Virus record (IMG/VR): IMGVR_UViG_3300000839_000001
DNA length: 48,300 nt
Reading direction: 5' to 3' (one strand)
From: a virus
The position numbers and the translations under genes were made by a program. This document shows positions 4,582-48,078 of this stretch, in pieces. Under the pieces are notes generated by a model, which had not been told where the DNA came from, did no database searches, and saw nothing but the letters and a program-made list of their open reading frames with translations. Position 1 is the first letter of the stretch; every line of letters starts with the position of its first letter.

Positions 4582-5648
4582 TGACCCCAAAAGACTACAT
4601 AGATAGGGGCTATTACCTTATTCCCATTAAGCCGGGAACAAAGGAACCTCTATATGATCCGCCCCACTTTACCAAAGGAGCGGCGGATGCTACGCAAGAC
4701 TTGAAGCTGCTAGAGAAATATGAACACTTCGGACTGGTTTGTAACAATTGCACAGTCCTTGACTTCGACCTCTATAAAGGCATAGATGCTGGTATGCAAC
4801 AACTGTTGCAACAGTGCCTAGTCACCGATAGAGAGCGGCATAATGTGACAGTACAGAAAACCCCTAGCGGGGGATTACATATTATATATGCTAAGAATGA
4901 AGGGCTTAGGTTGAACATACCTAACCTTGATATACGCAATAGCAATCAGTATATATGCGTCGATCCGACTCCCGGATATGCTTGGTTCACCCATTGTAGG
5001 GATGGTATTGTCAATCAGAACTTTCCACCAGTCAATATGCTTACTACGTTTATGAGCAATGCTCTAGTAAACAATGAAGTACGTAGGACTGGTTATGATG
5101 TTCCCACAATCAAACCTACTCCCTCACAATGGGAAGGTATAATGCGATGGTTGCAAGGACAAAAGCCCGCTATAAGTGGGAATGGCGGACATAACCAAAC
5201 TTATAGAGTCGCCAGTGATTTGCGGGTTGGTTTCAATCTCGATACAGAGACGGTACACTGGCTACTATTGAACGTATATAATGAGAAGTGCCAGCCCATG
5301 TGGACGGAGAACGAGCTATGGCACAAGGCGAATAGCATTGTCGTATGGACAAAGCCGGGCTATCTGTTGGCTACTCTCGAAGCAAGACAAGAGATACAAT
5401 TACCCTATCGCATAGAGCGGGCGGGAAAGTATCTTTATGAATGTACCGATCCGAAGCATCTTCGGCGAGTGATAACTAAAATGCGGATAGGCTTCGACCT
5501 TCCCGCCGTGGCGGTTCTTAAACTGCTAGAAGTGTATAAACCAAACCTTCTACTTACTACTGAGTTGAAGGACTATGTATACAATCCAGATAACTTACAT
5601 AACCTTCCCGTAGGCTATATGCTTAGGGAGAAAGAAAGGCAACAATAA
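4581..5648 (+). CDS. archaeo-eukaryotic-type primase-polymerase (prim-pol)
   Basis: N-terminal YLIPIKPGTKEP. AEP motif I VLDFDLY (DxD), motif II PSGGLHIIY, motif III NLDIRNSNQYICVDP. ATGA overlap with the helicase gene. Confidence 0.7.
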   Translation: MTPKDYIDRGYYLIPIKPGTKEPLYDPPHFTKGAADATQDLKLLEKYEHFGLVCNNCTVLDFDLYKGIDAGMQQLLQQCLVTDRERHNVTVQKTPSGGLHIIYAKNEGLRLNIPNLDIRNSNQYICVDPTPGYAWFTHCRDGIVNQNFPPVNMLTTFMSNALVNNEVRRTGYDVPTIKPTPSQWEGIMRWLQGQKPAISGNGGHNQTYRVASDLRVGFNLDTETVHWLLLNVYNEKCQPMWTENELWHKANSIVVWTKPGYLLATLEARQEIQLPYRIERAGKYLYECTDPKHLRRVITKMRIGFDLPAVAVLKLLEVYKPNLLLTTELKDYVYNPDNLHNLPVGYMLREKERQQ

Positions 5649-5649
5649 C

Positions 5650-6882
5650 ATGACAAACGAAAGCGAAAAATCTGCATTGAAAACTGTGTATAGAGACAAG
5701 TACAAAGATGACGTTGAAAAAGTGACGTTCGCTATGCTTGCTCTGGATGAAAACATTTCAATCGAGCGAATTGATACGGTTCTCAACACTTGGGAGACTC
5801 TCTATGAAAACAAAGTAACGTGGACTCTAGGCTTTATGTCTGGAGTACAAGCAACCAAGTTGACAGACAAAGAGGTTGCTGCACACCGTTGTGATACAAT
5901 ACAGAACCTAGGCAGATATATCTGGTGGATACTTTCTAAAGATCAAGAGAAAACAACTGCCGATACTGCCGAGCTTTTGAACAACAGTTGTATCTTGTTG
6001 TTTACGTACAACTTGATGGGCTATGAGTTTGCGACGGTAGTTACGAAAGTTGTAGAATACGTCAATAATCCGTCAATCCTCATATACAAGGCTCTGTTTA
6101 AGGAATCGCCAGCAGAGGAACCGCTTCCTTATGATGCTTCACATCCGAAGTGTCAGAAGACTATAGAGGGACAAACTGCTTTTGTGAGTGTAATAGAGGA
6201 GGTTACAGAGATACCGAAGAACCTAACAATCGGCGGAGGTAGACTACAAGAGGTTCCCTTACCTCAAGACAAGTTCAGAGAGTTTCGTATCGCTCTGGAG
6301 CAGCGAAGAGTTTGCATACTTACACCCTTCATTCTGCTACACGATAAACCTGTACAGCATACTTATGAAGAACTGCTCTTGAGTACGTTCCAAATGGCCA
6401 AACGGAAGAACAGCAACTACGGAAACTCGGTAGCCAAGTCACCGTCACTGATTCCTGATATGTATCCGCAGCAAGCAATCCTTGTTCGTATGTCCGACAA
6501 ACTGGCACGTCTGCAATCGCTATATGCAGGTGAGCAAGATAAGGTAGGTGAGTCGCTTCGTGATACATGGGTCGACCTTGGTAACTATCTCTGTCTTTGT
6601 GCGGCGGTAGTGAATCTGCAAAGCCTTATTCCAGAGGAACCGACTGGAGAGCAGTTGATCGATGAACTGGAAGTGGTATACTACAGACTCAAAAGCGAAG
6701 GATATAGGGCTGGGCATAGTCAGAGTAAACCCCATGCTCTGGCTACTGCTCAAGAGGTGATCAATCTGATAAGTAATCAGTCTAACACTCTTGAGGAATC
6801 CTGTATATGTGCAGCAAGGGCTGTATTCTCTTTCCTTACGCTTGACGGAATGAGAAAAACAGAAGATGGCGAAAGAGTATAA
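5650..6882 (+). CDS. hypothetical protein, possibly two all-alpha NTP-pyrophosphohydrolase-like (DUF1599/MazG-like) repeats
   Basis: C-terminal KNSNYGNS...ILVRMSDKLARLQSL...GESLRDTWVDLGNYLCLCA resembles the DUF1599 signature. An N-terminal echo is HRCDTIQNLGRYIWWIL. Confidence 0.35.
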   Translation: MTNESEKSALKTVYRDKYKDDVEKVTFAMLALDENISIERIDTVLNTWETLYENKVTWTLGFMSGVQATKLTDKEVAAHRCDTIQNLGRYIWWILSKDQEKTTADTAELLNNSCILLFTYNLMGYEFATVVTKVVEYVNNPSILIYKALFKESPAEEPLPYDASHPKCQKTIEGQTAFVSVIEEVTEIPKNLTIGGGRLQEVPLPQDKFREFRIALEQRRVCILTPFILLHDKPVQHTYEELLLSTFQMAKRKNSNYGNSVAKSPSLIPDMYPQQAILVRMSDKLARLQSLYAGEQDKVGESLRDTWVDLGNYLCLCAAVVNLQSLIPEEPTGEQLIDELEVVYYRLKSEGYRAGHSQSKPHALATAQEVINLISNQSNTLEESCICAARAVFSFLTLDGMRKTEDGERV

Positions 6883-6893
6883 GGAGTAAACAA

Positions 6894-9191
6894 ATGGCTA
6901 TATATTGGTGGACGCCTTCAGTAGTTTTCCCACAAGGTAGTTTTCTTGCTCTCGATACAGAGACGACCGTTGTTGACTTGACGCGAGAAGTGCCAGCGAT
7001 GGTAGTAGGAGGTATATCTGATGGGCAGAACGTATATCTCTTGAAACCAGAAGACGTGATAAACTTTAGAGCTTACGCGGTAGCGTATAAGTACACATTA
7101 TTTATGCACAACGCCGCATTTGACTTGGCGGTTCTGGAGAAAGTCACGCAAGACGATCTACCCAAAGCTGCTAAAGAGGCAGGAACATCTTGGTATGATC
7201 TAGTAGATAGTAGTCAAGTAGTGGATACAATGCTGTTGTTCCAACTGTTGGAGATTGCTACGAAAGGCAAACATATCCAGAGTAGTTTGAAGTATGTTGT
7301 AGAAACCGTATTCGGTAAACAGGTCGAAAAACTAGCCCTTGATAAAGACGGTGATGTGATCCGAATGTCTTTTAGCAAATGGATAGGGCGTTTGGAGCAG
7401 ATGACCCAAGACTACGTAGACTACGTAGCGGACGATATTCTGTTGACCTATCAAGTAGGTATGCACCTATTGACTACCATTGCCGGTTTTGTGCAAGAGA
7501 GGGGTAGGAAACAAGATACGTTCGGCAATCTCACCATGTCCGAAATAACAGACGCATGGGGCAAATACGGCCCCCTAACGCATCATATTCAGCTAAAAGG
7601 AGCAATAGTCCTACATCAAATTACCTTGAATGGTATGTATGTAAACAGCGCCGCTGTAGAGCGCTTTATTGCTGAGGTACACAAAGAGGTTGAACAAATA
7701 GGGGCGAGACTTGCAACAGAATATGGATTTTTCAAAGGCCCCGGTTCCTCTGGAGTTTTGCAAGGTTTCTTTACACAGGTCGATCAAATAATAGTTGCCG
7801 AGCGTAGGAAACAAGGACTGCCTGTTACAGAGGTCTCGCAAGGAGTGTATACATTTCTACCTAGAACCGCCACCGGGAAATTTCAGACTGGGGCAGAAGT
7901 CATAGGTGAATATGAACTGCATAGCTACTCTGACTTTTTCGAGTTATACCTCAAGCACCAGACTTTAGAGAAGGAGTTAAATAGCTTTCTCAAGAAGTTA
8001 TACGGCGGCTATGGTATGTTCGGCAAACAGGACATAACGGTGCATCCATCGTTTACACCGATACTTAGCACCGGGCGAGTAAGTAGCTGGGGTGAGATCA
8101 ATTCTCAGAACATACCGAAGGTTAAAGGGATGCGAGAGTGTTTCGTAGCTAGAGAGGGTCACTGCTTTATCAATGTTGACTACTCCGGCATCGAAATGGT
8201 CACTCTGTGTGATGCGGTACGTAACCAGTTCCATGTAGATAGTCATGTCATGCAGGAAGCCATCAATAGTGGTAGAGACCTGCATAAAGAGACTGCGGCG
8301 TTCCTTGTAGGACATGATGACGTTACCAAAGAAGAACGGCAGAAAGCAAAGGCTGCAAACTTCGGACTCCCCGGCGGGATGGGAGGCAGGAGGCTCGCTA
8401 CCTACATGAGAGGGTATGGTGTTCGGATTACCGAGGAAGAGGGGCAAGCTATTGCGGATGGATGGAAGACTAAGTATCCAGAGATGCGGTACTTCATCAA
8501 TGAACTAGAGCCGCCAGCACAGGCTATTTTAGCACAGGCGGTATATAGTGAGACTGGTTGGTGTGCTTACAATGAAGCCCCTACAACCGAAGAAGGCTGG
8601 CGAATCTGTGGTTACATGACTGTAAAGCTGTGTACAGAACAAACCCCAGTTTCTAGTAGTGGCAACCCCTACGATATAAACATGGTGATGGGCGGTAGGA
8701 CATGTGTACAGAGCTGGGCTATAAAGAACGGTATAGCTGATTTACTGCCTGCAGGGTTTCCTCGATATCCAATCAGTAAGTCGAATATGGAGACTTTACT
8801 AGGTAGGCTGGGTTGGAAGTATACAGCAACAGCAACCGGCAGATATAGACGCACCAGTCGATTCACTGAAAAGCGGAATACTATCTTTCAAGGACTGGCT
8901 GCGGACGGGATGAAGCTCGCTAGTTACCTGATATATAGAGCAGGTTACAAGATAGTGAACATCGTTCATGACGAAATTCTGGTAGAAGTGCCAGACAACC
9001 GAGAGAGCTATACCGAAGCCTATAATGAGATATGTAACTTCATGCGGCAAGGTATGCACGAAGTAGTGCGAAATACTAGGGTAGAGGTAGAAGGCGCTAT
9101 TACTCGCTGTTGGAGTAAAGATGCCAAGCTACTTATGGATGATGACTATAACTATTTGATATGGGAGTATAACAATGCGACAGTTAGTTAG
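6894..9191 (+). CDS. family A DNA polymerase with 3'-5' exonuclease domain
   Basis: Exo I LALDTETT, Exo II HNAAFDLAVL, Exo III YVADDILLTY. Pol motif A DYSGIEMVTL, motif B RQKAKAANFGLPGGMG, motif C IVHDEILVEV. RBS aaggag. Confidence 0.9.
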   Translation: MAIYWWTPSVVFPQGSFLALDTETTVVDLTREVPAMVVGGISDGQNVYLLKPEDVINFRAYAVAYKYTLFMHNAAFDLAVLEKVTQDDLPKAAKEAGTSWYDLVDSSQVVDTMLLFQLLEIATKGKHIQSSLKYVVETVFGKQVEKLALDKDGDVIRMSFSKWIGRLEQMTQDYVDYVADDILLTYQVGMHLLTTIAGFVQERGRKQDTFGNLTMSEITDAWGKYGPLTHHIQLKGAIVLHQITLNGMYVNSAAVERFIAEVHKEVEQIGARLATEYGFFKGPGSSGVLQGFFTQVDQIIVAERRKQGLPVTEVSQGVYTFLPRTATGKFQTGAEVIGEYELHSYSDFFELYLKHQTLEKELNSFLKKLYGGYGMFGKQDITVHPSFTPILSTGRVSSWGEINSQNIPKVKGMRECFVAREGHCFINVDYSGIEMVTLCDAVRNQFHVDSHVMQEAINSGRDLHKETAAFLVGHDDVTKEERQKAKAANFGLPGGMGGRRLATYMRGYGVRITEEEGQAIADGWKTKYPEMRYFINELEPPAQAILAQAVYSETGWCAYNEAPTTEEGWRICGYMTVKLCTEQTPVSSSGNPYDINMVMGGRTCVQSWAIKNGIADLLPAGFPRYPISKSNMETLLGRLGWKYTATATGRYRRTSRFTEKRNTIFQGLAADGMKLASYLIYRAGYKIVNIVHDEILVEVPDNRESYTEAYNEICNFMRQGMHEVVRNTRVEVEGAITRCWSKDAKLLMDDDYNYLIWEYNNATVS

Positions 9192-9825: not shown

Positions 9826-10018
9826 ACATCCAACTTGTGAGCAATGTAAATGGTACGAAGGTCTAAAGGTTAGACCCGTAAATGAAATACCGAAAATTGA
9901 GGAACTATGCAACCATCCCGCTGGCGTTTCTACAAGAGGTTACTACAGAGCGTGTAGAGATTACGAACCACTAGAACCGCCAGTCAAGAGTAGATTCGAG
10001 GATGACGATGAATTTTGA
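9818..10018 (+). CDS. small Cys-rich protein, member 3 of the CxxC family
   Basis: TCEQCKWYEG ... LCNHPAG ... RACRDYEP. Start overlaps the upstream stop. Confidence 0.6.
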   Translation: MTKHPTCEQCKWYEGLKVRPVNEIPKIEELCNHPAGVSTRGYYRACRDYEPLEPPVKSRFEDDDEF

Positions 10019-10226
10019 AGCTACCAAACGATGTATACGCTGCCGTTCTGCGGTAGCAGGAAAGGCTAAAGAGGTTGTTCCGTGGTTACTAGATGCTAAG
10101 GACTGGGATAAACAGGTTGTACTCTGTTGGCGGTTCGTGCAGGTACAGGGGATCAATAACAGAGCCTGTGAACACTTTGAATTGCACCCTAGATATATAG
10201 AGGCTACAGATGATAGCGGTACTTAA
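10002..10226 (+). CDS. small Cys-rich protein, member 4 of the CxxC family
   Basis: RCIRCRSAV ... VLCWRF ... RACEHFEL. Confidence 0.6.
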   Translation: MTMNFEATKRCIRCRSAVAGKAKEVVPWLLDAKDWDKQVVLCWRFVQVQGINNRACEHFELHPRYIEATDDSGT

Positions 10227-10771: not shown

Positions 10772-11124
10772 ATACAAAAGATATAAAGCTAGTCTGTATA
10801 GATAGCAATTCATACGATAGCAGAAAATGCTGGATATTAGGCAGACAGATATTCTGTGAGACGCTACCGTCACTAGGTCATACTATGGAAGAAGTCACCT
10901 ACAATGTACGTACTAACACTTGGACGGCACAATTTCCAGAGAAACTAGGATTCGCCGATATGTTCCTAAAGATTTCTGTTACCGAGACCGGGCTACACAT
11001 CCTTATACAGACCGAGACCTTTGGATTGTTCGCTACCTATAAGAAACAAGCAATTGTATGTCTTTCCACTTTCGACTGGCGCTTCTATAGCGAGTTGTCA
11101 GATATTATGAAGAACATTATTTAG
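10756..11124 (+). CDS. hypothetical protein
   Basis: 122-aa ORF, co-oriented, overlapping start. Confidence 0.6.
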   Translation: MDMEMNTKDIKLVCIDSNSYDSRKCWILGRQIFCETLPSLGHTMEEVTYNVRTNTWTAQFPEKLGFADMFLKISVTETGLHILIQTETFGLFATYKKQAIVCLSTFDWRFYSELSDIMKNII

Positions 11125-11144
11125 AATCGCCACCGGATGAGCTA

Positions 11145-12191
11145 ATGAGTAACGATACAGAGAAGGTTGTGCTAACTAGCAAAGGTTACCCTAAAGAATA
11201 CGTACCAGCAGTAGAGGAAGATATGTCACACATAGGACTACCGAACGTAATGCTCGCCCCAAACCAGCAAGCAGACTTGACGACTATAAAGTATCCGGCT
11301 TTTTGTTCATACAAAATGGACGGGATTCGAGCCATTTTCATCAATGGCGAGCTACGTAGTCGTAACATGAAATTTCACCCTGAGACTATACAGCAACACT
11401 TTCAGAACTTATGTGACTTTACCAGAGCCGCCAACTGTGTTTTGGATGGGGAGATATACCTGCACGGGTTGAAGTTCAATGAGATTAAAAGCACTATGCA
11501 CGATACATTGAAACTTGCTGCATGTCCTCTGGAGTTCCATTGTTTCGACATAGTAAGCACAGACGAGTGGCTTGGTGCTTCTGTAACCCCGTGGCATAAA
11601 CGCTACGCTACTCTGGAGTTATTCAGACAGGCATATACCTATGAGTTTGGTGACGACCGCTTTGTGCAGGTAGATCAGACATTACATAACAAGCCAGAGA
11701 CTATCCAAGACTTAATGGAGTTGTCTCTGGAAGAGGGGTTTGAGGGCATAATGATTAGAGACCCTTACTCGCTCTATAAGCATGGGCGAGCTACTATCAA
11801 GGAGAATACCTTCCATAAGTTGAAAGAGTTTGCTACCGTTCGGGCCGTCATAACTGGCTTCAATTATAAAGAAGTCTTGAAAGCAGATGCCCCAATGGGA
11901 GTAGATGCAATGGGATATACAGAGCGAGATCATCGCAAAGATAGCCGGGAAGTGATAGATGAAATTGGCTCTATCAACCTTGTCTTATCTGACAATACCT
12001 ACTTTCCAGTAGGTACGAAACTCTCTGCTACTTTTGCAAAGAACATGGAAGCCTACGCTCTGCGTTGTGCTATCACTACAAAGAACTTTAACTTCTATCT
12101 AGGGAAAGAAGTGTACGTCACCTTTCAACCCTGTGGCAGTGTAGATGCCCCTAGGTTTCCTAGAATTGTGAGACTGACCGGTGAAGTATGA
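11145..12191 (+). CDS. lig: ATP-dependent DNA ligase
   Basis: Motif I SYKMDGIRA (KxDG), motif III VLDGEIY, motif IV EGIMIRDP, motif V FHKLKEF. Confidence 0.85.
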   Translation: MSNDTEKVVLTSKGYPKEYVPAVEEDMSHIGLPNVMLAPNQQADLTTIKYPAFCSYKMDGIRAIFINGELRSRNMKFHPETIQQHFQNLCDFTRAANCVLDGEIYLHGLKFNEIKSTMHDTLKLAACPLEFHCFDIVSTDEWLGASVTPWHKRYATLELFRQAYTYEFGDDRFVQVDQTLHNKPETIQDLMELSLEEGFEGIMIRDPYSLYKHGRATIKENTFHKLKEFATVRAVITGFNYKEVLKADAPMGVDAMGYTERDHRKDSREVIDEIGSINLVLSDNTYFPVGTKLSATFAKNMEAYALRCAITTKNFNFYLGKEVYVTFQPCGSVDAPRFPRIVRLTGEV

Positions 12192-12481: not shown

Positions 12482-12559
12482 ATGTTGTTTGCTATAGTTA
12501 TTGTGTTTGTACTCACCATATGCGCACTGGCGGTTCTTACTGCAAAGGATAAGTTATGA
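12482..12559 (+). CDS. possible 25-aa hydrophobic micropeptide
   Basis: My translation: MLFAIVIVFVLTICALAVLTAKDKL. Its stop overlaps the next ATG (ATGA). Confidence 0.35.
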   Translation: MLFAIVIVFVLTICALAVLTAKDKL

Positions 12560-13003: not shown

Positions 13004-13585
13004 ATGTCTGACTTAATTAGCAGCAAAGCTGCTGAAGACAGTCCTAAAGGACTGACACTAGATGCTACAATAGAGATAGTAGCTCCTACAATACCGCCTG
13101 TGGTCAATATATCAGATATGCCTGCCAACAAGCTAACGGTATTTACCAGAGAAGTATATATGGAGGATGGGATATACTCCCTTACAATCGTATTCAGAAC
13201 CGCCACTGTGTGGAACGTGGTATACATCGACACGGTGGCGCTTCTACTCCAGAATAAGAACAGCGTACCGACTGAGCTGCCTAGACCTAAATGGGCCGAG
13301 ACACAATCGGCAAGTTGCCCAGTAGTATCTAGCTGGGCGATGGTATTCGATAAACCCTACCCAGTACATTTAGATAGGGATATGTTTTTTCATCCTAGAC
13401 ATATTCCCCTACTGGGTCAAGAACACCTTCCGATGTTCGTGCCAAAACGGTTGACGGAGTACGCTACAGAACGTAGGTGTACAGAGGCTACACTGGAGGA
13501 GGCGCTAAAAATGCTAGATAACCTAGACCAGAAGTACCCTACTGCATGTCTTTCGGTATCTCTAGTACCTCTCCGTCGATCGTAG
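13004..13585 (+). CDS. hypothetical protein, last gene of the plus arm
   Basis: 193-aa ORF. Its 3' end converges on and overlaps 13539..14021(-). Confidence 0.6.
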   Translation: MSDLISSKAAEDSPKGLTLDATIEIVAPTIPPVVNISDMPANKLTVFTREVYMEDGIYSLTIVFRTATVWNVVYIDTVALLLQNKNSVPTELPRPKWAETQSASCPVVSSWAMVFDKPYPVHLDRDMFFHPRHIPLLGQEHLPMFVPKRLTEYATERRCTEATLEEALKMLDNLDQKYPTACLSVSLVPLRRS

Positions 13586-14023: not shown

Positions 14024-14233
14024 TTAGTCCTTAGGTTCTTTCTGTTTATAGAATATACATTTAGAAGGCCCGCAAAAACGTGGTCGAAAAGGACGGCCTC
14101 CATAGGCCCCCTTACCTTCTTCAATCTCTTTATTGCTGCATCGTATATAGCAATAGTCACAAGTAGGGCAATACCCACTTTCTGGTGAGTCTATAGCATA
14201 TATACAAGAAGCGCCACTCTGGGTGTTGCTCAT
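14024..14233 (-). CDS. small Cys-rich protein, member 7 of the CxxC family (on the late strand)
   Basis: YCPTCDYCYIRC ... FCGPSKCIFYKQKE resembles KACKKFERKE of 12249..12473. The start was moved to the ATG at 14233, which forms an ATGA overlap with the upstream stop. Confidence 0.5.
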   Translation of the reverse strand: MSNTQSGASCIYAIDSPESGYCPTCDYCYIRCSNKEIEEGKGAYGGRPFRPRFCGPSKCIFYKQKEPKD

Positions 14234-39104: not shown

Positions 39105-39783
39105 GAGAGTGAGGGCAGGTAGGTCATCACTCTACCTACCCTCGTCGGTGCTTCAGTCCGACTAGCTACCTTACCGGATACTGCTGGTTATTAGGCAGTA
39201 GGCAGCTTCCCGCTTCGCAATATATCTTATACGTCCGAACGATAGGGTTTGTCCCGAAAAATCCCGGAAATTCTATGGTTTTGTGGATACGGCGGGCGGT
39301 TCCTTATATACGCTACACGGAATTGATTATTGTGGTGGATTTCAACTACCTACAAGGTGACAAGGACAATATCGGAGAGTCGGCTAAAATCGATTTTAAG
39401 AGGGTGTACGCTTTCAATGAAGCGAGATTGATCGACACATGGTGTTTGTGGTCATGTGGTCTATTGAAACTTGTACAATTTCAATACGGATTGCTTCCAT
39501 AAATTTGAATTTTGTTTTTGAAAATCAAAAGCTAGGGAGGTGTAGAGGGATATGGAGAATTGAATATCGTAGGAAGGTTAATGGAGTTACATAATTGGAA
39601 AGGTTGGAGAGGCTAATGAAGTTACGTAATTGAAGAGGTTTGAAAGGTTTAGAAGTGCCACGGCCTGAGATAACGTCGCTATGAGCACAGCTGCTATGGA
39701 GATCATAATCGCTATTTTATTTTTATAAAATTGAGGGAAGCATTTAGAACCGCCACCGTGACTATGTTTGATCGCTATGGACA

Positions 39784-39860
39784 TAAGAGTGTAACCATGA
39801 AGACTGCTGGAAGCCTAATAGTAGCCGCTGCTACGGAGTAAGAGTGTAACCATGAAGACT
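39784..39860. repeat. pair of perfect 22-nt direct repeats taagagtgtaaccatgaagact (39784..39805 and 39839..39860)
   Basis: Read directly. Each contains GTGTAACC. Confidence 0.9.
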
Positions 39861-39951
39861 TGCTGGAGAATTTGGGCTTGACGTGAACAGATAGGCGAGC
39901 TGCCCCGATCCTCCCATACTCCCTATCGTTTTTGAAGGTCTCCCCGTTCCC

Positions 39952-40030
39952 ACGAACAGAGCGGCCAAAGCAGGCAGGGCGATTGCTGGGCGGCTAGGGC
40001 GAAACGAACAGAGCGGCCAAAGCAGGCAGG
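39952..40030. repeat. pair of perfect 27-nt direct repeats acgaacagagcggccaaagcaggcagg (39952..39978 and 40004..40030)
   Basis: Read directly. Start-to-start spacing is 52 nt. Confidence 0.9.
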
Positions 40031-40091
40031 CGGTGTAGCGATTGATCGACCTCGCAAAGCAAGTATAGTTAGATTGGCGAATAGGGAGTAA

Positions 40092-40167
40092 GACCGTAAC
40101 CGCGCAACCACGTAACCATAAAATTAGGGATCGGCAATTGTGGTTACGCGGTTGCGTGGTTATGGTC
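40092..40167. repeat. imperfect 29-nt inverted repeat. Each arm holds three 8-nt-spaced G(T/C)AACC units.
   Basis: gaccgtaaccgcgcaaccacgtaaccata versus the reverse complement of tgtggttacgcggttgcgtggttatggtc. 25 of 29 match, with an 18-nt spacer. Confidence 0.8.
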
Positions 40168-40398
40168 GGTCGATTTGTGGGAATCGACTGAAAATTGGGT
40201 GTAACCGGGGCGGTTACGGCAGTGCCAGCCCCCGGTTGACGTAGTTACACCCTTAAAAATAGGAATATCTATTGATATGTAACGAGTAACTATTCTAAAG
40301 TAAAAGATCGTCTAACAAAATGCCTTTCCGGGGGGGAAAAAGAGGGGGGGAGACCTCGCTGGTTACACTGAAATGATCGTTACGAGCCGCCCGTAACC

Positions 40399-40439
40399 AT
40401 TATATATATATCCACGGGCCGCGTAACCGGCCCGTGGAT
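40399..40439. promoter_or_regulatory. (TA)6 tract abutting an 11-bp perfect GC-rich hairpin whose loop carries GTAACC
   Basis: attatatatatat, then atccacgggcc-gcgtaacc-ggcccgtggat. Confidence 0.7.
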
Positions 40440-40499
40440 ACGAAAGTAATCAAACAGGTTTCATAACCATATAACCGGAGCCGCCTCCCGGCAACTTGT

Positions 40500-40523
40500 G
40501 GTTACACGGTTACACGGTTACAC
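40500..40523. repeat. tandem iterons GGTTACAC x3
   Basis: ggttacacggttacacggttacac read directly. Confidence 0.9.
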
Positions 40524-40576
40524 GTAGATAGCCCATTCTGTGTAACGGAAAAGTTGTATCTATCAAACATTTCTAT

Positions 40577-40609
40577 GGGGGTGGGGGTGGGGGTGGGGTG
40601 GGGTGGTGG
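40577..40609 (+). other. G-quadruplex-forming tract: five G4-5 runs separated by single T
   Basis: gggggtgggggtgggggtggggtggggtggtgg read directly. Confidence 0.8.
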
Positions 40610-40630
40610 TTCTTTCGCTGCGTCTCCAAA

Positions 40631-40824
40631 CGCCGTAAGTCTTTATAGCGGAAGGGTTTATAGCGAAACTTCCGCAGTGAATCTACGTATTCGAGCGTGG
40701 CGATTCTCAAAAAACTAAGTGTCCATCCGGGAATTTCTCCCTATTTTTCTCGGAAATTTTCCAGCATCGGGGAAATTTCTAGCAGCACTTTTATCGCCAT
40801 AAGTCCTTTATAGGTAAAGGTTTA
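40631..40824. repeat. two imperfect 30-nt direct repeats (40631..40660 and 40795..40824), each followed by TGGCG(A/G)TTCTC
   Basis: cgccgtaagtctttatagcggaagggttta versus cgccataagtcctttataggtaaaggttta. Confidence 0.7.
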
Positions 40825-40978
40825 CGGCGGTTGGCGGTTCTCGACACGAAAAATTTCCTAGAAAATTCCCCCACTTTCGGGGGGTTTTATAGGATTTCCT
40901 CTAGCCCGCGGCGGTTCTAGTCGATATAATACAGTAGACGCGGGAAAGAAAGCCAGCCCGCAAAAACCACCATATCTA

Positions 40979-41332: not shown

Positions 41333-41412
41333 CCCAAAAATTTACGAGTGGCGGCTCTACCCGCCGTCACCTCGAATACTACATCACTACATCACTAATA
41401 AGGATACATATT

Positions 41413-42978: not shown

Positions 42979-43139
42979 TCTCCCTAAGCCCCTACGGCGT
43001 AGGGACTTACATCAAAATCAGTCCCGTTGGCGATTCTAACGGGACTACCTTTACAGTTTAGTGTACTACCGTCATAGTACACTGCTACATAGCATCATCA
43101 CCTAGCCAGTCACCATATCTATCACCGGAACTATCTATC

Positions 43140-43415
43140 ATGCCAAGCCCTAAGTTGTCGCAAGTCATTACCCCCGCAAAGGTTACGTATCGACCAATCG
43201 AAGCACAAGCGAGTGAACTAAACTACATCGCCTATCATAGGTCGATATTGCTGGATAGGCTCGCCCAGATTCAAGCCGAATTGGCGGCTCTTGACCGCCG
43301 CAGAGCCACTATAGACGCTGCTATTGTCGCTACCTATATGCCCCCTGTCGTTGACACACAGATCACTGGTACAGATGTACCAGCAGAGCCGGGCGACACG
43401 CAAGACACGCCGTAG
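43140..43415 (+). CDS. hypothetical early protein
   Basis: 91-aa ORF with a helical centre LLDRLAQIQAELAALDRRRATIDAAI. CACCATATCT motif 20 nt upstream. Confidence 0.55.
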   Translation: MPSPKLSQVITPAKVTYRPIEAQASELNYIAYHRSILLDRLAQIQAELAALDRRRATIDAAIVATYMPPVVDTQITGTDVPAEPGDTQDTP

Positions 43416-43530: not shown

Positions 43531-43607
43531 AAAGCAAGGCGAAATTTATAACAGCCCCCATTACCTAGCTAACAATCCCACTTACACCATTTAGAGGAAC
43601 AATACCT

Positions 43608-44057: not shown

Positions 44058-44236
44058 CAGTATCTAAGGGAGTGCATTGACCTAACAATCAGAACCGCCA
44101 GTGTGATATGGGCGAATAGGCCATATCATGCTCTTGCTACTGTTGACGCTTTAGCGTCATCTTGAGTAGCATAGCTATTACCCTGTTTGGTAGTAGCACT
44201 TACACCATAACCGCCCAATAGGGCAAAGGAACACTA

Positions 44237-44629
44237 ATGGACATTCAATCAGTACCTGAACGCTTCAAAGTAGTTATCATCAAGCTACAAGGCATGTTGT
44301 CAAAGGTTGACGGCTTGCTACATGTAACCGCCGAAGTAGAACACGCCGAGACAATCGACTATGGCGGCGGATTGTATTACTATGAACACAAGGTAGATAG
44401 TGATATGTACTCGGTCAAGGTTGTCGCTCAATATAGTAGCAACAAAGACCGTGACAACGGATTGTCAGACATACATATCTCGATCCGTGACAACTTCGGC
44501 GAATTGGCGTTTCTTACGCTTTCCCCTTGTATTATGGATATTGCTACACGGACAAAGTGTTTGTTAGTCAGCAATATCATTCAGTCAATCCTCACCAATG
44601 TACCGAAAGCAGAGGTTATCAATGACTAA
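44237..44629 (+). CDS. hypothetical early protein
   Basis: 130-aa ORF. RBS aaaggaac. Confidence 0.6.
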   Translation: MDIQSVPERFKVVIIKLQGMLSKVDGLLHVTAEVEHAETIDYGGGLYYYEHKVDSDMYSVKVVAQYSSNKDRDNGLSDIHISIRDNFGELAFLTLSPCIMDIATRTKCLLVSNIIQSILTNVPKAEVIND

Positions 44630-44888: not shown

Positions 44889-45009
44889 TAGTTAGGACAA
44901 ACTACTATTCCCCGCCCTGTTATACTTTAATCGGTATAGCAGGGATTTATATCGTCGCCGATCACTGGCGGTTCTATCAATACACAACCCAACAATCCTA
45001 ACTTACACC

Positions 45010-47187
45010 ATGAGTACAACGGAACAATCTAAAGTGTCAGAACAAAGAGTATGCAATGTTACTATGAAGGGAGAGCAAATAGAATTTGCCTTCCCGTTCG
45101 GGTACAAAGAATTGTCTAACGGCAAAGTCCCCTTTAGAGCGTATGATATACATGATGACGCCTATTGGGGCTCGTTCCCGGAAAAGTATACCGATGAAGA
45201 AGGTAACTATGTCGGGAGACAAGCAGAGCGGGACGCCCCCTTCTCTCTCATTTGGAAACGCCCAAAGAGGATAGAGATTGTCAAGGCTTTCAATCTCTTG
45301 CTAGAGCATTGCAACCCCGCCACATACAACTACCGCTTTGAGAGCAATACACCCTATATAGCACAGATTATGGGGGATAACCTCGCTCTTGAGAACCGCC
45401 AGCGATTGGCGGTTCCGTATATCTATCAAGCCCTTCAATATCCTCTTATGGAGCATCAAATAGAGGAAGTTAGCAAGGCAGCGCTATGTACCGGCAGGTG
45501 TAACTTTTCGGCAACCGGAACCGGCAAGACGGTGATGATTATAGCTACTATGTTCAATAAGTGGTTATTAGAAGGCCGACCGGATAGGCCCTGCTTGATA
45601 GTCTGCCCCAACCACATACGACTTGCATGGAAGCGAGAGTTTGACACGTTCACTAACCACAATGTGAAGTGTACAATAGTCATGGGTACACCTGCCCAAA
45701 GGAAATATATACTATTCAATGCCCTAGGTCAACCATTGCAAGATGTACCAGTGGAGTACGCTACTACTGGCGAGACTGGCACGAAGCCTATGCGGGTTAT
45801 AATTGCCGGATACGATACCGTCACCAATGATATACTTGACTTTATGATAGGTGACTGGTTTGCCGGTTGTCTTGACGAAGCGCATAGGATAAAAACACCC
45901 CTGACCAATAGAACGGAAGCTATCTTTAATCTACAAAGAAGGATTAAGCATCGCTATGTAGCAACAGGTACGCCGGACACCAATAGCTTTGCGGACGCGT
46001 ACACGCCTATAGAATGGGTGTTCCCTAACTATTTCGGCAAAAGGTGGCATGAAGACATTACCGAACATAGCGAGACACGTAGCACTGCCAGAACAGAGAA
46101 AGAGCGGAAGAGAGATAAAGAAAAGGCGACATTACGTAATGCTCTCAACAAGTATCCCGGTCAACCTAGCGGACGGACGGACGGGATACCTATCAAACCC
46201 TATATCAATGATTCTGAAAACAATCTTGGAGTAAAATGGAGTAGCCTTAATGGTGGACAAGAGCGTCTTATTTCCGAGTTTGGGACTACGGATAGTTTTG
46301 GAAAAGCAAAGAAGCTATATAGACATAAAGAACAGGAGTTTCAAGACCTTATAAAGTATGCTAGTTGTAGGTATCTCTTGACTGATATACGGGACGATAT
46401 GCCCGATCAAATCATGGAAGTCGTACCTATCGACCTTACCGAAGAACAGAAAGTGGTATACAAAGCCTTACAAGAGAAACTTTTGTATGCTATGGAGTCT
46501 GCGGAAGGTATGAAGACCGTGACAATAACGAACATGCTTACTCAATACTTGCGACTGGTACAAGTTACAGGCGGTTGGGTACAGTATGATGAAGAAAGCG
46601 GTTGGGACTTTGAGAACGGCACACTCATAGAGAGCGTAACTACTAGGGAAGACTTTGTAGACAATCCCAAACTAGATAAGGCTATCGAACTATGTCAGGA
46701 AGCGATAGTAGATAACAAGTGCATCATCTGGGCACATTTCCGTCACGACATAGACTTGATTATGTCAAGGCTGGCGAGTCTTGGTATAAAACACGCTAGG
46801 ATTGACGGGAGAGATACAGATAAGAATCGCCAAGAAGTCATACACGCTTTCAACAATGATTCTACAATGCGTGTACTGGTAGCTAACCCCGGAGCATGTG
46901 GGGAAGGGTTAAACCTACAAGGTGTTCAAGGTACGGAAGCTAAAGACTATGATGACGCTGTTCTATGTAACACGCTCATATTCTATAGTACCTCTTGGAG
47001 TAGTAAGGACTTTATTCAGGCAATGGCCAGACCATACCGATTGAATACTACATGCACACAATACATATACTCGCTACAAGCGAGAGCGTCGATTGACAAC
47101 TACATATACAGTGTTGTGCAAGGCAAATGTGACGCAAGCAGAGAGCTGTTAGGTGACGTTCTCAAACAATCTGTGGGGACTACCTAG
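45010..47187 (+). CDS. SNF2/Rad54-family (SF2) helicase-ATPase
   Basis: Motif I SATGTGKTVM, motif II LDEAHRIK, motif III ATGTPDTNS. C-terminal lobe GEGLNLQ and QAMARPYR. Confidence 0.85.
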   Translation: MSTTEQSKVSEQRVCNVTMKGEQIEFAFPFGYKELSNGKVPFRAYDIHDDAYWGSFPEKYTDEEGNYVGRQAERDAPFSLIWKRPKRIEIVKAFNLLLEHCNPATYNYRFESNTPYIAQIMGDNLALENRQRLAVPYIYQALQYPLMEHQIEEVSKAALCTGRCNFSATGTGKTVMIIATMFNKWLLEGRPDRPCLIVCPNHIRLAWKREFDTFTNHNVKCTIVMGTPAQRKYILFNALGQPLQDVPVEYATTGETGTKPMRVIIAGYDTVTNDILDFMIGDWFAGCLDEAHRIKTPLTNRTEAIFNLQRRIKHRYVATGTPDTNSFADAYTPIEWVFPNYFGKRWHEDITEHSETRSTARTEKERKRDKEKATLRNALNKYPGQPSGRTDGIPIKPYINDSENNLGVKWSSLNGGQERLISEFGTTDSFGKAKKLYRHKEQEFQDLIKYASCRYLLTDIRDDMPDQIMEVVPIDLTEEQKVVYKALQEKLLYAMESAEGMKTVTITNMLTQYLRLVQVTGGWVQYDEESGWDFENGTLIESVTTREDFVDNPKLDKAIELCQEAIVDNKCIIWAHFRHDIDLIMSRLASLGIKHARIDGRDTDKNRQEVIHAFNNDSTMRVLVANPGACGEGLNLQGVQGTEAKDYDDAVLCNTLIFYSTSWSSKDFIQAMARPYRLNTTCTQYIYSLQARASIDNYIYSVVQGKCDASRELLGDVLKQSVGTT

Positions 47188-47420: not shown

Positions 47421-47432
47421 AGAAAGCATATT

Positions 47433-47756
47433 ATGGGAATGACCGCATCAAAACCGCTATCGTCGCATGAAGTCCTAGAGAGACTTATCCAACAATTCTC
47501 ACTGGAGAATACACAAACCATTGTCTATAGAGCAATTCCGCAACCGTGGATGAAAGCAGATTGCTGCGGAATATCTATTCGGTTCCCTAGTACGGGTAAG
47601 TGGATAGTTATTGACCTCACAAGCAAAGAAGTGCTTGCAAGGAAAGATGGCCCGCTAGGTGGCGATGTTATCTTCCATAAAGAGATAGAGCAATGGAGTT
47701 TTCAACAGACCGAAGCGGTGGTTAGAAAACTGCTTGATACAGTATACAGAAAATAG
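47433..47756 (+). CDS. hypothetical protein
   Basis: 107-aa ORF, co-oriented. Confidence 0.55.
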   Translation: MGMTASKPLSSHEVLERLIQQFSLENTQTIVYRAIPQPWMKADCCGISIRFPSTGKWIVIDLTSKEVLARKDGPLGGDVIFHKEIEQWSFQQTEAVVRKLLDTVYRK

Positions 47757-48047
47757 GTGAGGTGACGCTCACTAGCCACTAGGTGCGAAACGATGACCGC
47801 AATACCTAGTAGCACCGCAAGTAAGGCAGTTCCGGCCATAGCTTGCAGCCCCTTGATACCTTATGGTGGGGTAGACAAGGGGCAGACCACAGATGACGCT
47901 TTAGCGTCAACGCCCGATCTTCGCTAGGTAATACCGCTATCTCCAGATAAGGATTGTAGTATTATGTAGGTTGGATTCCTACTATCGGGGCTGTATCAGA
48001 ACAATGTCTGCTAATACGGATATTGCTCTGAATACATAACAGTATCA

Positions 48048-48078
48048 ATCAGAACCGCCAGTCGCTGGCGGTTCTGAT
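48048..48078. promoter_or_regulatory. perfect 14-bp-arm palindrome atcagaaccgccag-tcg-ctggcggttctgat
   Basis: Read directly. Ends 36 nt upstream of the wrap-around gene start. There is no downstream T-run, so it is more operator-like than terminator-like. Confidence 0.6.

Follow-up and report, generated by a model that had tools for sequence, protein, structure and literature searches.

The system that comes closest to the one described here is that of Nitratiruptor phage NrS-1, whose PrimPol requires an 8-nt template recognition sequence (5'-TTTGGTTA-3') and begins its primers 1-4 nt upstream of it (PMC8718748; PMC7102993). All 11 copies of GTTACAC in the NrS-1 genome (8 of them with the full octamer GGTTACAC) lie at 17061-17378, beside the PrimPol-helicase gene; the recognition sequence falls inside this iteron array and occurs just once or twice in that genome, at the origin, with no dispersed copies. 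The T7 gp4 primase (5'-GTC-3' based) and other prokaryotic primases also use a lagging-strand template word that fixes the starts of Okazaki fragments, with sites of 3-5 nt that are frequent enough by chance to need no seeding. Dozens of asymmetric sites (~13 bp) are spread over the genomes of Cluster A mycobacteriophages, where these stoperators of the L5 gp71 family repressors occupy the short intergenic gaps of temperate phages in one orientation to transcription. Over-represented words are known from bacteria as well: Chi (RecBCD/AddAB) and KOPS/SRS (FtsK/SpoIIIE) are G-rich, asymmetric host words of 5-8 nt, oriented with the leading strand outward from the origin, and the uptake sequences of competent hosts (USS in Pasteurellaceae, DUS in Neisseriaceae) are built on a ~10-nt core plus a weaker flank, recur about once per kb in several reading frames and form inverted pairs.

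The stretch of DNA that we analyse (the window, 48 kb) is a complete circular phage genome with a planctomycete as its probable host. The phage faces extreme restriction pressure and looks virulent; no repressor, integrase or other lysogeny genes were detected in its genome. It carries the replication genes listed in Table 1 and a VRR-NUC-like nuclease. The PrimPol has a C-terminal helical block that resembles PriCT and is conserved in an alignment with two relatives, and the C-terminus of the SF3/D5-type primase-helicase gives a weak RFX-like winged-helix match.

The word GGCGGTTCT is found in 20 exact copies, both strands counted, where dinucleotide shuffles give 0.21 (at most 2 in 100 shuffles) and Markov models of orders 1-4 predict 0.25-1.2. 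The massive over-representation claimed by an earlier, sequence-only reading of the window therefore stands: all 18 copies that it listed are exact matches, two on the minus strand (7863 and 13196) had escaped it, and its near-variants are all present at or within a few bases of where it placed them. The 9-mer that it named is real, but the true element is longer. A 5' T precedes 17 of the 20 copies, a weaker 5' flank is also present, and the full consensus is CnCRS-TGGCGGTTCT, a G-rich, asymmetric element of ~15 nt with roughly at least 17 bits of information and with mismatches tolerated at defined positions. TGGCGGTTCT has 17 exact copies and 56 sites at <=1 mismatch, and a weight-matrix scan yields 64-73 sites, against 0-4 in the reversed-sequence null; the overall density is ~1.2 sites per kb. 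The 40 nt that flank the sites to the left and to the right show no second conserved element. Non-coding DNA, 10% of the genome, holds 14 of the 56 sites (P=0.001), while 75% are intragenic and use all three reading frames, the Gly-Gly-Ser and Ala-Val-Leu frames already recognised in the sequence-only reading and, in a few cases, a third, Trp-Arg-Phe. As that reading also proposed, the sites pair into inverted repeats: six inverted pairs and no direct ones lie within 65 nt, and both palindromes (45392 and 48051) have a spacer of the same length, 5 nt.

As a control, synonymous codons are shuffled within each gene, keeping the proteins and the codon usage, and sites at <=1 mismatch are counted. 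The late arm has 19 sense and 1 antisense sites (expected 1.5 and 0.24), the replication arm 9 and 8 (expected 1.0 and 1.3), and the early arm 3 and 2 (expected 0.1 and 0.6); 25%-60% of the sense positions at which the protein permits a site really carry one. A codon-aware background thus leaves the excess unexplained. Because the excess survives shuffles that preserve both protein and codon usage, and because several frames, both strands and non-coding DNA all contain sites, selection on the word acts at the DNA level, on both strands, in agreement with what had been argued from the copies in different frames.

The polarity of the sites is best described by DNA strand. Of those at <=1 mismatch, 33 are on the minus strand and span the entire circle, with a spacing more even than random (CV 0.65, P=0.0065) and a density that hardly differs between their sense (0.77 per kb) and antisense (0.74 per kb) stretches. 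All 23 sites of the plus strand fall in one arc, from 40604 via the window junction to 16038, that makes up 49% of the genome (P<5e-6). The start of this arc is ~60 nt past the last iteron-like repeat, and its end is 32 nt away from 16006, the antipode of the iteron centre. The sites that border the iteron cluster point into it from both sides, the minus-strand copy at 39746 from the left and the plus-strand sites from 40604 to 40909 from the right. The plus-strand arc almost matches the plus-strand gene arms (40.6 to 13.6 kb), so that replication and transcription readings are confounded, and essentially a single strong site (16038) tells one from the other.

Relative to the genes, the late arm is about 19-20:1 sense to antisense (sites occupy 19 of the 75 allowed sense positions and 1 of the 36 antisense ones) and the region 40.6-43.3 kb is strongly polar (7:0), whereas the replication genes (1-13 kb) have no polarity (11:9). 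Sense sites crowd at gene starts, 18 of 31 being in the opening 250 nt (P=0.0025; 18 of 39 allowed positions are used there, 13 of 61 elsewhere), seven intergenic sense sites sit 34-125 nt upstream of start codons, and the 1.6 kb around the divergent control region contain six sites. The rule that exact copies follow the sense strand was correct for the minus arm (7 of 7, or 8 of 8 with the leader copy at 39746); in the plus arms the count is 7 sense and 6 antisense rather than 7 of 11, and the rule breaks down over 17 kb of plus-arm genes as well as in the relative rel1.

Table 1. Positions of the sites, iterons and genes discussed in the text.
Feature	Position	Strand	Remark
Site TGGCGGCTCT	961..970	+	Non-coding, upstream of gene 1073
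Site TGGCGGCTCT	1449..1458	+	
ECF-like sigma factor gene	1656-2159		phrog_1740, E=8e-15
Site TGGTGGTTCT	1702..1711	-	
Site TGGCGATTCT	2268..2277	+	
Site TGGCGATTCT	2750..2759	-	
SF3/D5-type primase-helicase (DUF5906)	2896..4581	+	
Site TGGCGGGTCT	2924..2933	+	
Site TGCCGGTTCT	4518..4527	-	
PrimPol (archaeo-eukaryotic primase family)	4581..5648	+	Pfam PF09250, E=1.5e-9
Exact TGGCGGTTCT	5509..5518	+	
Family A DNA polymerase (PolA)	6894..9191	+	With 3'-5' exonuclease domain
Exact TGGCGGTTCT	7126..7135	+	
Exact TGGCGGTTCT	7863..7872	-	Not in the earlier list
Site TGGCGGCTCT	8507..8516	-	
Site TGGCGTTTCT	9922..9931	+	Inverted pair with 9973
Exact TGGCGGTTCT	9973..9982	-	
Site TGGCGGTTCG	10128..10137	+	
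Site TGGCGCTTCT	11077..11086	+	Inverted pair with 11123
Site TGGCGATTCT	11123..11132	-	
ATP-dependent DNA ligase	11145..12191	+	
Site TGGCGGCTCT	11424..11433	-	
Exact TGGCGGTTCT	12528..12537	+	Non-coding
Exact TGGCGGTTCT	13196..13205	-	Inverted pair with 13236; not in the earlier list
Site TGGCGCTTCT	13236..13245	+	
Site TGGCGCTTCT	13848..13857	-	
Site TGGCGCTTCT	14207..14216	-	
Site TGGCGGTTCC	15765..15774	-	
Site TGGCGGTTCC	16038..16047	+	Last plus-strand site, antipode of iteron cluster; perfect inverted pair with 16103
Site TGGCGGTTCC	16103..16112	-	
Exact TGGCGGTTCT	17567..17576	-	
Exact TGGCGGTTCT	20920..20929	-	
Site TGGCGGGTCT	23818..23827	-	
Exact TGGCGGTTCT	24274..24283	-	
Site TGGCGGGTCT	26820..26829	-	
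Site TGGTGGTTCT	28111..28120	-	
Site TGGCGATTCT	29829..29838	-	
Exact TGGCGGTTCT	31938..31947	-	
Site TGCCGGTTCT	33661..33670	-	
Site CGGCGGTTCT (exact 9-mer)	35609..35618	-	
Site TGGCGCTTCT	36426..36435	-	
Site CGGCGGTTCT (exact 9-mer)	37329..37338	-	
Site TGGTGGTTCT	37989..37998	-	
Site TGGCGGGTCT	38477..38486	-	
Site TGGCGGTTCC	38888..38897	-	
Exact TGGCGGTTCT	39746..39755	-	34 nt left of first iteron, points into iteron cluster
GGTTACAC/GTGTAACC iteron cluster	39789..40547		~1.2-kb non-coding region between divergent arms
Site TGGTGGTTCT	40604..40613	+	First plus-strand site, right of iterons
Site TGGCGATTCT	40698..40707	+	
Exact TGGCGGTTCT	40832..40841	+	Non-coding
Site CGGCGGTTCT (exact 9-mer)	40909..40918	+	TATAAT 7 nt downstream
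Site TGGCGGCTCT	41349..41358	+	Non-coding
Site TGGCGATTCT	43028..43037	+	Non-coding; loop of 9-bp hairpin
Site TGGCGGCTCT	43282..43291	+	
Exact TGGCGGTTCT	44091..44100	-	Non-coding
Site TGGCGTTTCT	44505..44514	+	
Exact TGGCGGTTCT	44966..44975	+	Non-coding; SNF2 helicase start 34 nt downstream
Palindrome AGAACCGCCA-GCGAT-TGGCGGTTCC	45392..45416		Minus site 45392 and plus site 45407; within SNF2 gene
Site TGGCGATTCT	46823..46832	-	
Palindrome AGAACCGCCA-GTCGC-TGGCGGTTCT	48051..48075		Minus site 48051 and plus site 48066; non-coding

The iteron cluster holds 7 of the 9 genomic copies of the octamer, including a triple tandem at 40500-40523. Because of this cluster the divergent region looks like an origin, and we take the cluster as the presumed origin of replication; the switch of polarity that the sequence-only reading had placed in the divergent region is indeed found there. 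The octamer GGTTACAC is identical to the origin iteron of NrS-1, and the core CGGTT is common to the iterons of the window (aCGGTTACac) and the dispersed word (tggCGGTTct). The two phages are further alike in encoding a PrimPol that works with an SF3 helicase and, as we infer for the window, in an unusually long G/T-rich recognition word with primers starting in its 5' flank. They differ in that NrS-1 has its one or two copies at the origin while ~60 sites are dispersed through genes here, with both strands used and an arrangement that reflects the division of the circle into two halves. The dispersed word shares only GGTT/CGGTT with TTTGGTTA, no sequence similarity is detectable between the window PrimPol and NrS-1 gp28, and that between the helicases is marginal (E=0.002).

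Two relatives, rel1 and rel2, share the PrimPol, helicase and PolA module with the window (PolA 46% and 41% identical) at a GC content of 0.34-0.41, compared with 0.455. In both, an asymmetric word with a C-rich 5' flank is over-represented, a different one in each. That of rel2, TGGTTRRT, is observed 30 times against 4.2 expected (18 against 0.8 for MSTGGTTRRT) and includes TGGTTA, like the NrS-1 site; that of rel1, TGGTTNNCT, is observed 27 times against 7.2 expected. The replication-arm sites of rel1 are mostly antisense (12 of 18), which speaks against a sense-strand-dependent signal, and its late arm has little enrichment and no polarity (5:4).

Combining these observations, we tentatively read the word as what the priming enzymes of the phage itself (PrimPol with the SF3 primase-helicase) recognise on the template, dispersed for lagging-strand priming. 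Of the explanations considered we favour this one, though as possible rather than probable. The enzyme, for which the PrimPol is the candidate, would start primers only beside the long single-stranded word 5'-TGGCGGTTCT-3', read on the G/T-rich strand, and synthesis would begin in the pyrimidine-rich 5' flank (CnCRS). Since fewer than one copy per genome is expected by chance, seeding would have supplied about one site per kb on each strand that serves as lagging-strand template. Replication would start at the iteron cluster (39.8-40.5 kb), where the inward-pointing flanking sites could start both leading strands; lagging-strand sites would lie on the minus strand to the left of this origin and on the plus strand to its right, up to the antipode at about 16.0 kb. 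The observed spacing of ~1-1.5 kb per strand corresponds to the size of bacterial Okazaki fragments. The sites differ from those of T7 gp4 and other prokaryotic primases in having 10-15 nt and in being written into coding sequence. To our knowledge, primase sites have 3-5 nt (8 nt in NrS-1), and an enzyme that needs 10-15 nt would have no precedent. NrS-1 lacks dispersed sites, the late arm of rel1 is without polarity, and 13-23 minus-strand sites of the right half need an extra assumption, namely a rolling-circle phase with a leftward fork.

The gene-start crowding of sense sites and the equal spacers of the two palindromes are more easily explained by a DNA-binding regulator than by primase recognition. 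Such a phage-encoded regulatory or architectural protein would bind double-stranded DNA, as a monomer on the asymmetric word and as a dimer on the palindromes, controlling the divergent early and late promoters and acting as a polar roadblock at intragenic sites. Like stoperators, the sites are numbered in dozens genome-wide, their orientation tracks transcription in the divergent arms, and operator-like copies lie at early promoters. An asymmetric 10-15 bp element with defined tolerated mismatches, the six sites around the control region, the non-coding excess, the seven sites before start codons and the sense bias of the late arm all suit this explanation, and different words in the relatives would fit co-evolution of protein and site. 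We nevertheless consider it unlikely, since antisense sites are enriched as much as sense ones over 17 kb of replication genes (8 against 1.3 expected) and predominate in rel1, most sites are intragenic and evenly spaced without clustering at promoters, the phage genome has no detected lysogeny module that could supply a repressor, and the link to the iterons and NrS-1 is left unexplained. Promoter elements for the ECF-like sigma factor, or an RfaH/ops-like non-template-strand element, would share with the regulator the sense bias (in the late and immediate-early regions) and the intergenic sites before start codons; a sigma-like gene is present, and GGCGGT is common to the word and to the ops element (GGCGGTAGnnTG). 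This is very improbable: a partner element is missing within 40 nt, most sites are inside genes rather than upstream of starts, antisense copies are enriched, an ECF-like GAAC in the reverse complement would face against the genes, and separate conserved leader/promoter-like elements exist (a 55-nt leader at 960-1010 and 39070-39118, and CACCATATC boxes). Recognition by a phage nickase, leaving T5-like or tf-like single-strand interruptions to be sealed or used in replication or late transcription, has a similarly slight probability. While the word is strand-specific and asymmetric, the minus strand has evenly spaced sites all round the genome, and a ligase and a VRR-NUC-like nuclease are encoded, no nickase or HNH gene was detected in the phage genome, assembled sequence cannot reveal nicks, and the plus strand has 23 sites too; in the nicked phages that we know of, nicks are on one strand only.

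The analogies with Chi, KOPS and uptake sequences, put forward by the sequence-only reading, all need the word to be a host-genome word. Paired-form scans of 185,579 species genomes, of JGI metagenomes and of IMG/VR return, among the matches listed, isolated hairpins only and no word-enriched locus, so that no host, other genome or phage rich in the word is among them. A Chi-like word taming RecBCD/AddAB (at broken forks, on rolling-circle tails or after restriction cuts), or a KOPS-like guide for a translocase, is in our view distinctly unlikely. The word is over-represented, G-rich and asymmetric like these, its orientation follows the leading strand in both halves from the presumed origin as in bacteria, the restriction pressure implies that double-strand ends must be frequent, and the GC content of the relatives points to probably other hosts, which could explain their different words. 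The element is, however, twice as long as any known Chi or KOPS site, 13-23 minus-strand sites of the right half have the wrong polarity, the sites pair as palindromes and favour gene starts, and the word resembles the phage's own iterons; we know of no host or phage in which the density of Chi reaches ~1.2 sites per kb. Least credible of the explanations is that the phage has accumulated the uptake sequence of a host with natural competence. Density, a 10-12 nt core with a weaker flank, several frames and inverted pairs resemble USS/DUS, and GCGG is common to the word and the Haemophilus USS. Uptake sequences, however, are not known to be missing from one strand across half of a replicon, whereas half of this genome is without plus-strand copies; they are typically sparse in virulent phages, and a phage that looks virulent offers no route for uptake-driven accumulation. 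Relatives that share the replication genes have related words of their own, tracking the replication module, and the core of the word is shared with origin iterons identical to those of NrS-1, whose PrimPol has proven long template specificity. The evidence comes closer to the fallback of the sequence-only reading, a phage-specific recognition word.

We return to the priming explanation and what it would mean for the phage. It supposes two modes of replication, the second a later rolling-circle phase in one direction that would use the remaining minus-strand sites of the right half. The presence of a ligase, with no RNase H or flap endonuclease gene detected in the phage genome, fits DNA-primed Okazaki fragments. 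As no portal homologue was found from the rel2 contig, which suggests that rel2 has another structural module, the word trait would travel with the replication module.

The starting point is the 9-mer GGCGGTTCT, which occurs 20 times in the window. The sequence-only reading had picked out 18 of these by eye; every coordinate that it listed is correct, and the two that it overlooked are the minus-strand copies at 7863 and 13196. The expected number is 0.21 from dinucleotide shuffles and 0.25-1.2 from Markov backgrounds of orders 1-4, so the claimed over-representation holds against such a background. When the copies are aligned, the word gains a T at its 5' end (in 17 of the 20) and a weaker flank, and the consensus becomes C(-5) n C(-3) R(-2) S(-1) TGGCGGTTCT. 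The core accepts mismatches chiefly at positions 1, 6, 7 and 10 and now and then at position 4, and the 40 nt to each side hold no second conserved element. With at most one mismatch allowed (the definition of a site used here, unless a weight matrix is named), we find 56 sites; a weight-matrix scan gives 64-73, against 0-4 in the reversed sequence.

The next question is "does the word follow from what the genes encode?" Sites are found in three reading frames and on both strands, which rules out a peptide repeat as their source, and synonymous shuffling within genes rules out a by-product of codon usage. In the late (structural) arm the shuffles predict 1.5 sense and 0.24 antisense sites where 19 and 1 are observed, and in the replication arm 1.0 and 1.3 where 9 and 8 are observed. 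Selection at the DNA level, as had been proposed earlier, is therefore confirmed. Between 25 and 60% of the sense positions that the proteins permit are occupied by a site. The cyanobacterial HIP1 palindrome GCGATCGC has 0 copies in the window, and a match by complementarity to the tRNA 3' end (AGAACC-G-CCA) is set aside as numerology. A literature search for the word returns Gly-Gly-Ser linker primers alone, and one for over-represented primase sites in phages returns nothing relevant.

We turn to the orientation of the sites, for which a sense-strand rule had been suggested. The rule stands in the structural arm, where sites are 20:1 sense and fill 19 of 75 permitted sense positions versus 1 of 36 antisense ones, and at 40.6-43.3 kb (7:0), but it breaks down between 44 kb and, over the circular junction, 13 kb, with a ratio of 15:13 (11:9 at 1-13 kb and 4:4 at 44-48 kb). 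A description by DNA strand is simpler. The 33 minus-strand sites span the whole circle, with a density of 0.77/kb where they are sense and 0.74/kb where they are antisense, and their spacing is more regular than that of randomly placed points (CV 0.65, P=0.0065). All 23 plus-strand sites, on the other hand, lie in one 23.7-kb arc, from 40604 over the junction to 16038, that makes up 49% of the genome (P<5e-6), and they are missing from the other 24.6 kb (P<5e-6). By weight matrix there are 30 plus-strand sites within the arc and 4 weak ones beyond it, and the right half of the circle (40.6 kb via the junction to about 16 kb) also holds 13 minus-strand sites with at most one mismatch, or 23 by weight matrix. 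In this genome, effects of replication direction are largely confounded with those of gene orientation.

The sites also show preferences on a smaller scale. The non-coding 10% of the genome contains 14 of the 56 (P=0.001). Sense sites are biased toward gene starts: 18 of 31 are in the opening 250 nt (P=0.0025), where 18 of 39 permitted sense positions are filled, compared with 13 of 61 elsewhere (P=0.014). Word pairs within 65 nt are inverted in 6 cases and direct in 0, and two palindromes of the form AGAACCGCCA-N5-TGGCGGTTCT, at 45392 and 48051, have the identical 5-nt spacer.

The window is a complete, circularly assembled phage genome, because both of its ends hold pieces of one tandem array and the source assembly (ENA ERZ27245261 k141_96548) has 48,368 bp. 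Annotation with Pfam and PHROGs covered about 50 of about 60 ORFs, many of which carry no annotation; among these 50 or so, no integrase, repressor, methyltransferase, NusG-like protein, nickase, RNase H or flap endonuclease is detected. Rfam at permissive thresholds gives 0 matches in the window, no tRNA genes are found in it, and a scan of it for promoter and terminator consensus sequences returns counts at the level of shuffled sequence.

Features of the window genome; coordinates in nt unless kb is given
Feature	Position	Strand or block	Basis or remark
Replication arm	0.1-13.6 kb	plus	Pfam/PHROGs
ECF-like sigma factor	1656-2159	replication arm	phrog_1740, E=8e-15
SF3/D5-type primase-helicase	2896-4581	replication arm	weak RFX-like winged-helix match at C-terminus
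PrimPol	4581-5648	replication arm	Pfam Prim-Pol PF09250, E=1.5e-9
PolA	6894-9191	replication arm	
VRR-NUC-like nuclease		replication arm	
ATP-dependent ligase	11145-12191	replication arm	
Structural arm: TerL, portal, scaffold, SU10-like capsid protein, tail proteins	13.5-39.0 kb	minus	
Early arm: many small ORFs without assigned function, SNF2 helicase	41.0-47.9 kb	plus	
Word as single-stranded template in the primase reading			CACTGGCGGTTCT
Perfect 27-nt direct repeat ACGAACAGAGCGGCCAAAGCAGGCAGG	39952-39978, 40004-40030	presumed origin region	starts 52 nt apart
(GGGGT)n G-tract	40578-40610		runs straight into site 40604
GGAAATTTCC-like boxes, clustered	40729-40870		upstream of first early gene
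Good terminator-like hairpin	40867-40884		between word copies 40832 and 40909
~55-nt leader (T)GATTAGATGAAA(A)ACTAGGTACTCCGAGyTTCmTCCAGTATCAGCAG	960-1010 (+), 39070-39118 (-)		precedes gene 1073 and first late gene (start codon 39024)
CACCATATC(TA)	1042, 1592, 40968, 43111; variants 12514, 44203	plus	all four exact copies ~25-60 nt upstream of early-gene start codons
28-nt hairpin family (GATACTGTTAGGAATACCTAACAGTATC and variants)	38046-38073, 44037-44064, 48019-48046		two lie ~5-30 nt upstream of minus-strand word copies 44091, 48051
Tandem 12-nt and 15-nt repeats TGCGGCCCCTGT, TGCGGCCCCGATCCC	48120-48300 into 1-873	both window ends	

Several of the tabulated elements lie close to genes. The 55-nt leader probably acts as a promoter or 5' UTR shared by the two genes; the word variant TGGCGGCTCT abuts the 5' side of its copy at 960, and the late copy has no word there. 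The genome-wide count of CACCATATC(TA) with one mismatch is not significant. The end repeats appear to be coding (Pro-Val-Ala-Ala and Pro-Ile-Pro-Ala-Ala), and, with the frame judged by eye, the repeat gene seems to start near 48120, cross the circular junction and run into the ORF that ends at 873.

As to the host, 12 kb of the window have no megablast match among GenBank phages, IMG/VR contains no close TerL relatives, and the best TerL match among 5.8 billion proteins has 57% identity. Among the distant TerL and PolA homologues that carry a name, nearly all belong to Planctomycetota, which makes a planctomycete the probable host. Three candidates are rejected as relatives: the TerL match P0011 is an unrelated temperate phage, P0005 is part of another phage, and cyanophage Ssp-JY42 has TerL alone in common, at 34% identity. 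Avoidance of palindromes is extreme, with 28 of the 64 palindromic hexamers at 0 copies where 3-18 of each are expected (AACGTT, AAGCTT, GAATTC, GGATCC, GGTACC, CTCGAG and TCTAGA among them), compared with just 34 of 4032 non-palindromic hexamers missing. CCWGG and GGWCC are missing altogether, CYCGRG is present once, and GCGC reaches 30 copies where 100 are expected. In the relatives (loci L001 and L002) likewise 34-35 hexamers are missing per ~15-kb stretch, and this shared avoidance implies that the hosts of these phages carry many restriction systems.

Two phages have the helicase, PrimPol and PolA module in common with the window. The first, rel1 (Logan SRR27955148_4028, 35.3 kb merged from loci L001 and L226), has 46% identity to the window in PolA and 57% in TerL; the second, rel2 (ENA ERZ27257302 k141_1813551, locus L227, with a JGI variant, L228), has 41% in PolA, and the lack of a portal homologue on its contig in a portal search suggests a different structural module. 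TGGCGGTTCT has 0 copies in both, and each has an over-represented asymmetric word of its own with a C-rich 5' flank. That of rel2, TGGTTRRT, has 30 copies in 22 kb where 4.2 are expected (MSTGGTTRRT, 18 against 0.8), in mixed orientation (18 plus, 12 minus) and with 4 of 5 adjacent pairs within 80 nt inverted. That of rel1, TGGTTNNCT, has 27 copies where 7.2 are expected; most of them lie in the replication arm, whose 18 sites are 6 sense and 12 antisense. The separate words, together with the antisense sites, make the dispersed word a family trait that diverges among members and is not bound to the sense strand. In the relative at locus L002 (ENA ERZ27257302), 15.7 kb hold 4 copies of the palindromic 10-mer AGAACGTTCT where 0.06 are expected; AGAAC/GTTCT is common to this palindrome and the window word.

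The arc of plus-strand sites begins beside a non-coding region of ~1.2 kb. Seven of the nine genome copies of the octamers GGTTACAC/GTGTAACC, which we call iterons, lie at 39789-40547 between the divergent arms, with a triple tandem at 40500-40523, and we infer that replication starts at this cluster. The centre of the cluster is at 40156, its antipode at 16006, and the final plus-strand site at 16038; the predicted origin and terminus are at 40.2 kb and 16.0 kb. The sites that flank the cluster face into it: on its left the minus-strand site 39746, on its right the plus-strand sites 40604, 40698, 40832 and 40909. The iterons (aCGGTTACac) and the dispersed word (tggCGGTTct) have CGGTT in common. 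The minimum of the cumulative GC skew falls at ~44-45 kb and not at the iteron cluster, because the coding strand of the early genes (41000-45000) has negative skew; the first minus-strand word copy to the right of the presumed origin, 44091, is in the same region.

A link to priming comes from the Nitratiruptor phage NrS-1. Its top enriched word is GGTTACAC(TT), whose octamer is identical to the window iteron, and its 11 copies of GTTACAC, 8 of them extended to the full octamer, are all found at 17061-17378 (locus L233), beside the PrimPol-helicase gene. The NrS-1 PrimPol requires an 8-nt template recognition sequence, 5'-TTTGGTTA-3', unusually long for a primase; primers begin 1-4 nt upstream of it, and its copies lie at the genome centre, a candidate origin (PMC8718748; PMC7102993). 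We locate TTTGGTTA within the NrS-1 iteron array. It has TGGTTA in common with the rel2 word but just GGTT with the window word. The window replicon encodes an archaeo-eukaryotic PrimPol (PF09250), as a primase site requires, and the PrimPols of rel1 and rel2 align with it over the full length at 43-46% identity. By eye, a conserved helical C-terminal block in the three proteins looks like a PriCT-type domain. The window helicase has marginal similarity to NrS-1 gp28 (E=0.002), and the window PrimPol has no sequence similarity to gp28 and no match in the PDB, either as a single sequence or as a three-sequence profile; its single-sequence AlphaFold model (pLDDT 41) does not confirm a helix-bundle fold.

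Combining this information, we propose that the priming machinery of the phage recognizes the word in the template; this is the best-supported of the readings, and we hold it tentatively and with more doubt than confidence. We infer every functional step of the following model. A minus-strand site would prime the strand that grows rightward, and a plus-strand site the one that grows leftward. Leading strands would begin at the sites that face into the iterons, and the lagging strands of bidirectional replication would be primed at minus-strand sites of the left half and, as far as the antipode, at plus-strand sites of the right one. The geometry is consistent with this for 23 of 23 plus-strand sites, all in the right half, and for 20 of 21 late-arm sites, on the minus strand, given the presumed iteron origin and the confounding with gene orientation. 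The even spacing would be near the size of Okazaki fragments, the pyrimidine-rich 5' flank could be an initiation context, and the word would diverge among relatives together with the replication module. The minus-strand sites of the right half require the extra assumption that they serve a second, one-directional rolling-circle phase, and the gene-start bias and the fixed-spacer palindromes are not explained by the priming model.

These last two features would fit better with a phage DNA-binding regulator acting at dispersed sites, as at the stoperators of Cluster A mycobacteriophages, an explanation that we regard as unlikely. Stoperators keep a single orientation per arm, but the 20:1 ratio of the late arm is lost in the stretches at 1-13 kb and 44-48 kb, and antisense sites outnumber sense ones in the replication arm of rel1. 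The cognate repressor and integrase of a temperate phage are not found by Pfam and PHROGs in 50 of ~60 ORFs, many of them unannotated. Stoperators lie in promoters and short intergenic gaps; in the window, 14 sites are non-coding, more than expected, and 42 are within genes. A promoter or ops element is very improbable. The ops element of RfaH, GGCGGTAGnnTG, lies on the non-template strand of operon leaders and goes together with a NusG paralogue; ops and the window word have GGCGGT alone in common, window copies are intragenic and some antisense, and no NusG-like gene is detected. For a phage sigma factor, the missing second element within 40 nt rules out an ECF -35/-10 promoter, and the sites show no fixed placement upstream of genes.

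Analogies with Chi, KOPS and uptake sequences had also been drawn, and the length and information content of the element argue against all three. Chi, recognized by RecBCD or AddAB, is a short asymmetric word of 5-8 nt; the window word has a 10-nt core and a 5-nt flank, and its inverted pairs and gene-start bias do not fit. The origin-to-terminus polarity of KOPS/SRS fails at the reversed minus-strand sites of the right half. The paired word has 14 matches in IMG/VR, about the chance level and none in a word-rich locus; in 185,579 species genomes it matches at least 120 unrelated hairpins, 1 per genome, with none enriched among the matches listed. The fixed-spacer palindrome has 86 matches in JGI metagenomes (a collection without the window's own contig), none enriched. 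The absence of an enriched locus from these searches weakens the three analogies, and a host Chi- or KOPS-like word is quite improbable. An uptake sequence (USS/DUS) has hardly any probability, because large-scale strand exclusion is present, with the plus strand void over 24.6 kb; a genome with about one copy per kb, as in a competent host, does not appear among the matches listed. Nick sites of the T5/tf type, for which no nickase is detected among the ~50 ORFs, are likewise given very little weight. The probability that remains belongs to an explanation not yet imagined.

We return to the priming machinery. Extended to the lineage, probably in planctomycetes, the proposal is that the PrimPol needs a template word of 10-15 nt, that the genomes have been rewritten, largely via synonymous codons, to carry about one priming site per kb on each lagging-strand template, and that the word co-evolves with the enzyme (TGGCGGTTCT, TGGTTRRT, TGGTTNNCT). 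This wider scheme is possible and rather doubtful. PrimPols of long specificity (NrS-1), genome-wide asymmetric protein sites (stoperators) and polar words (Chi, KOPS) are already known. For a 10-15-nt word with ~60 copies in a virulent-looking phage, a half-circle pattern and diverged counterparts in relatives, none of them fits fully; we know of no system that accounts for the dispersed word, and our literature searches found no earlier report of one like it.

Even if the word belongs to a regulator or tames a nuclease, it is among the strongest strand-patterned words yet seen in a phage, with diverged forms in relatives. If it is a primase site, it would be the first case of a primase whose specificity leaves a visible mark on composition and codon choice throughout a genome, and the NrS-1 finding would widen from one origin site to a genome-wide code. 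The origin, terminus and replication mode of uncultured phages would then be readable by computation alone, and, if the lineage proposal is true, the replication programme of these phages, including the switch to rolling-circle replication, would be legible directly from their sequence.
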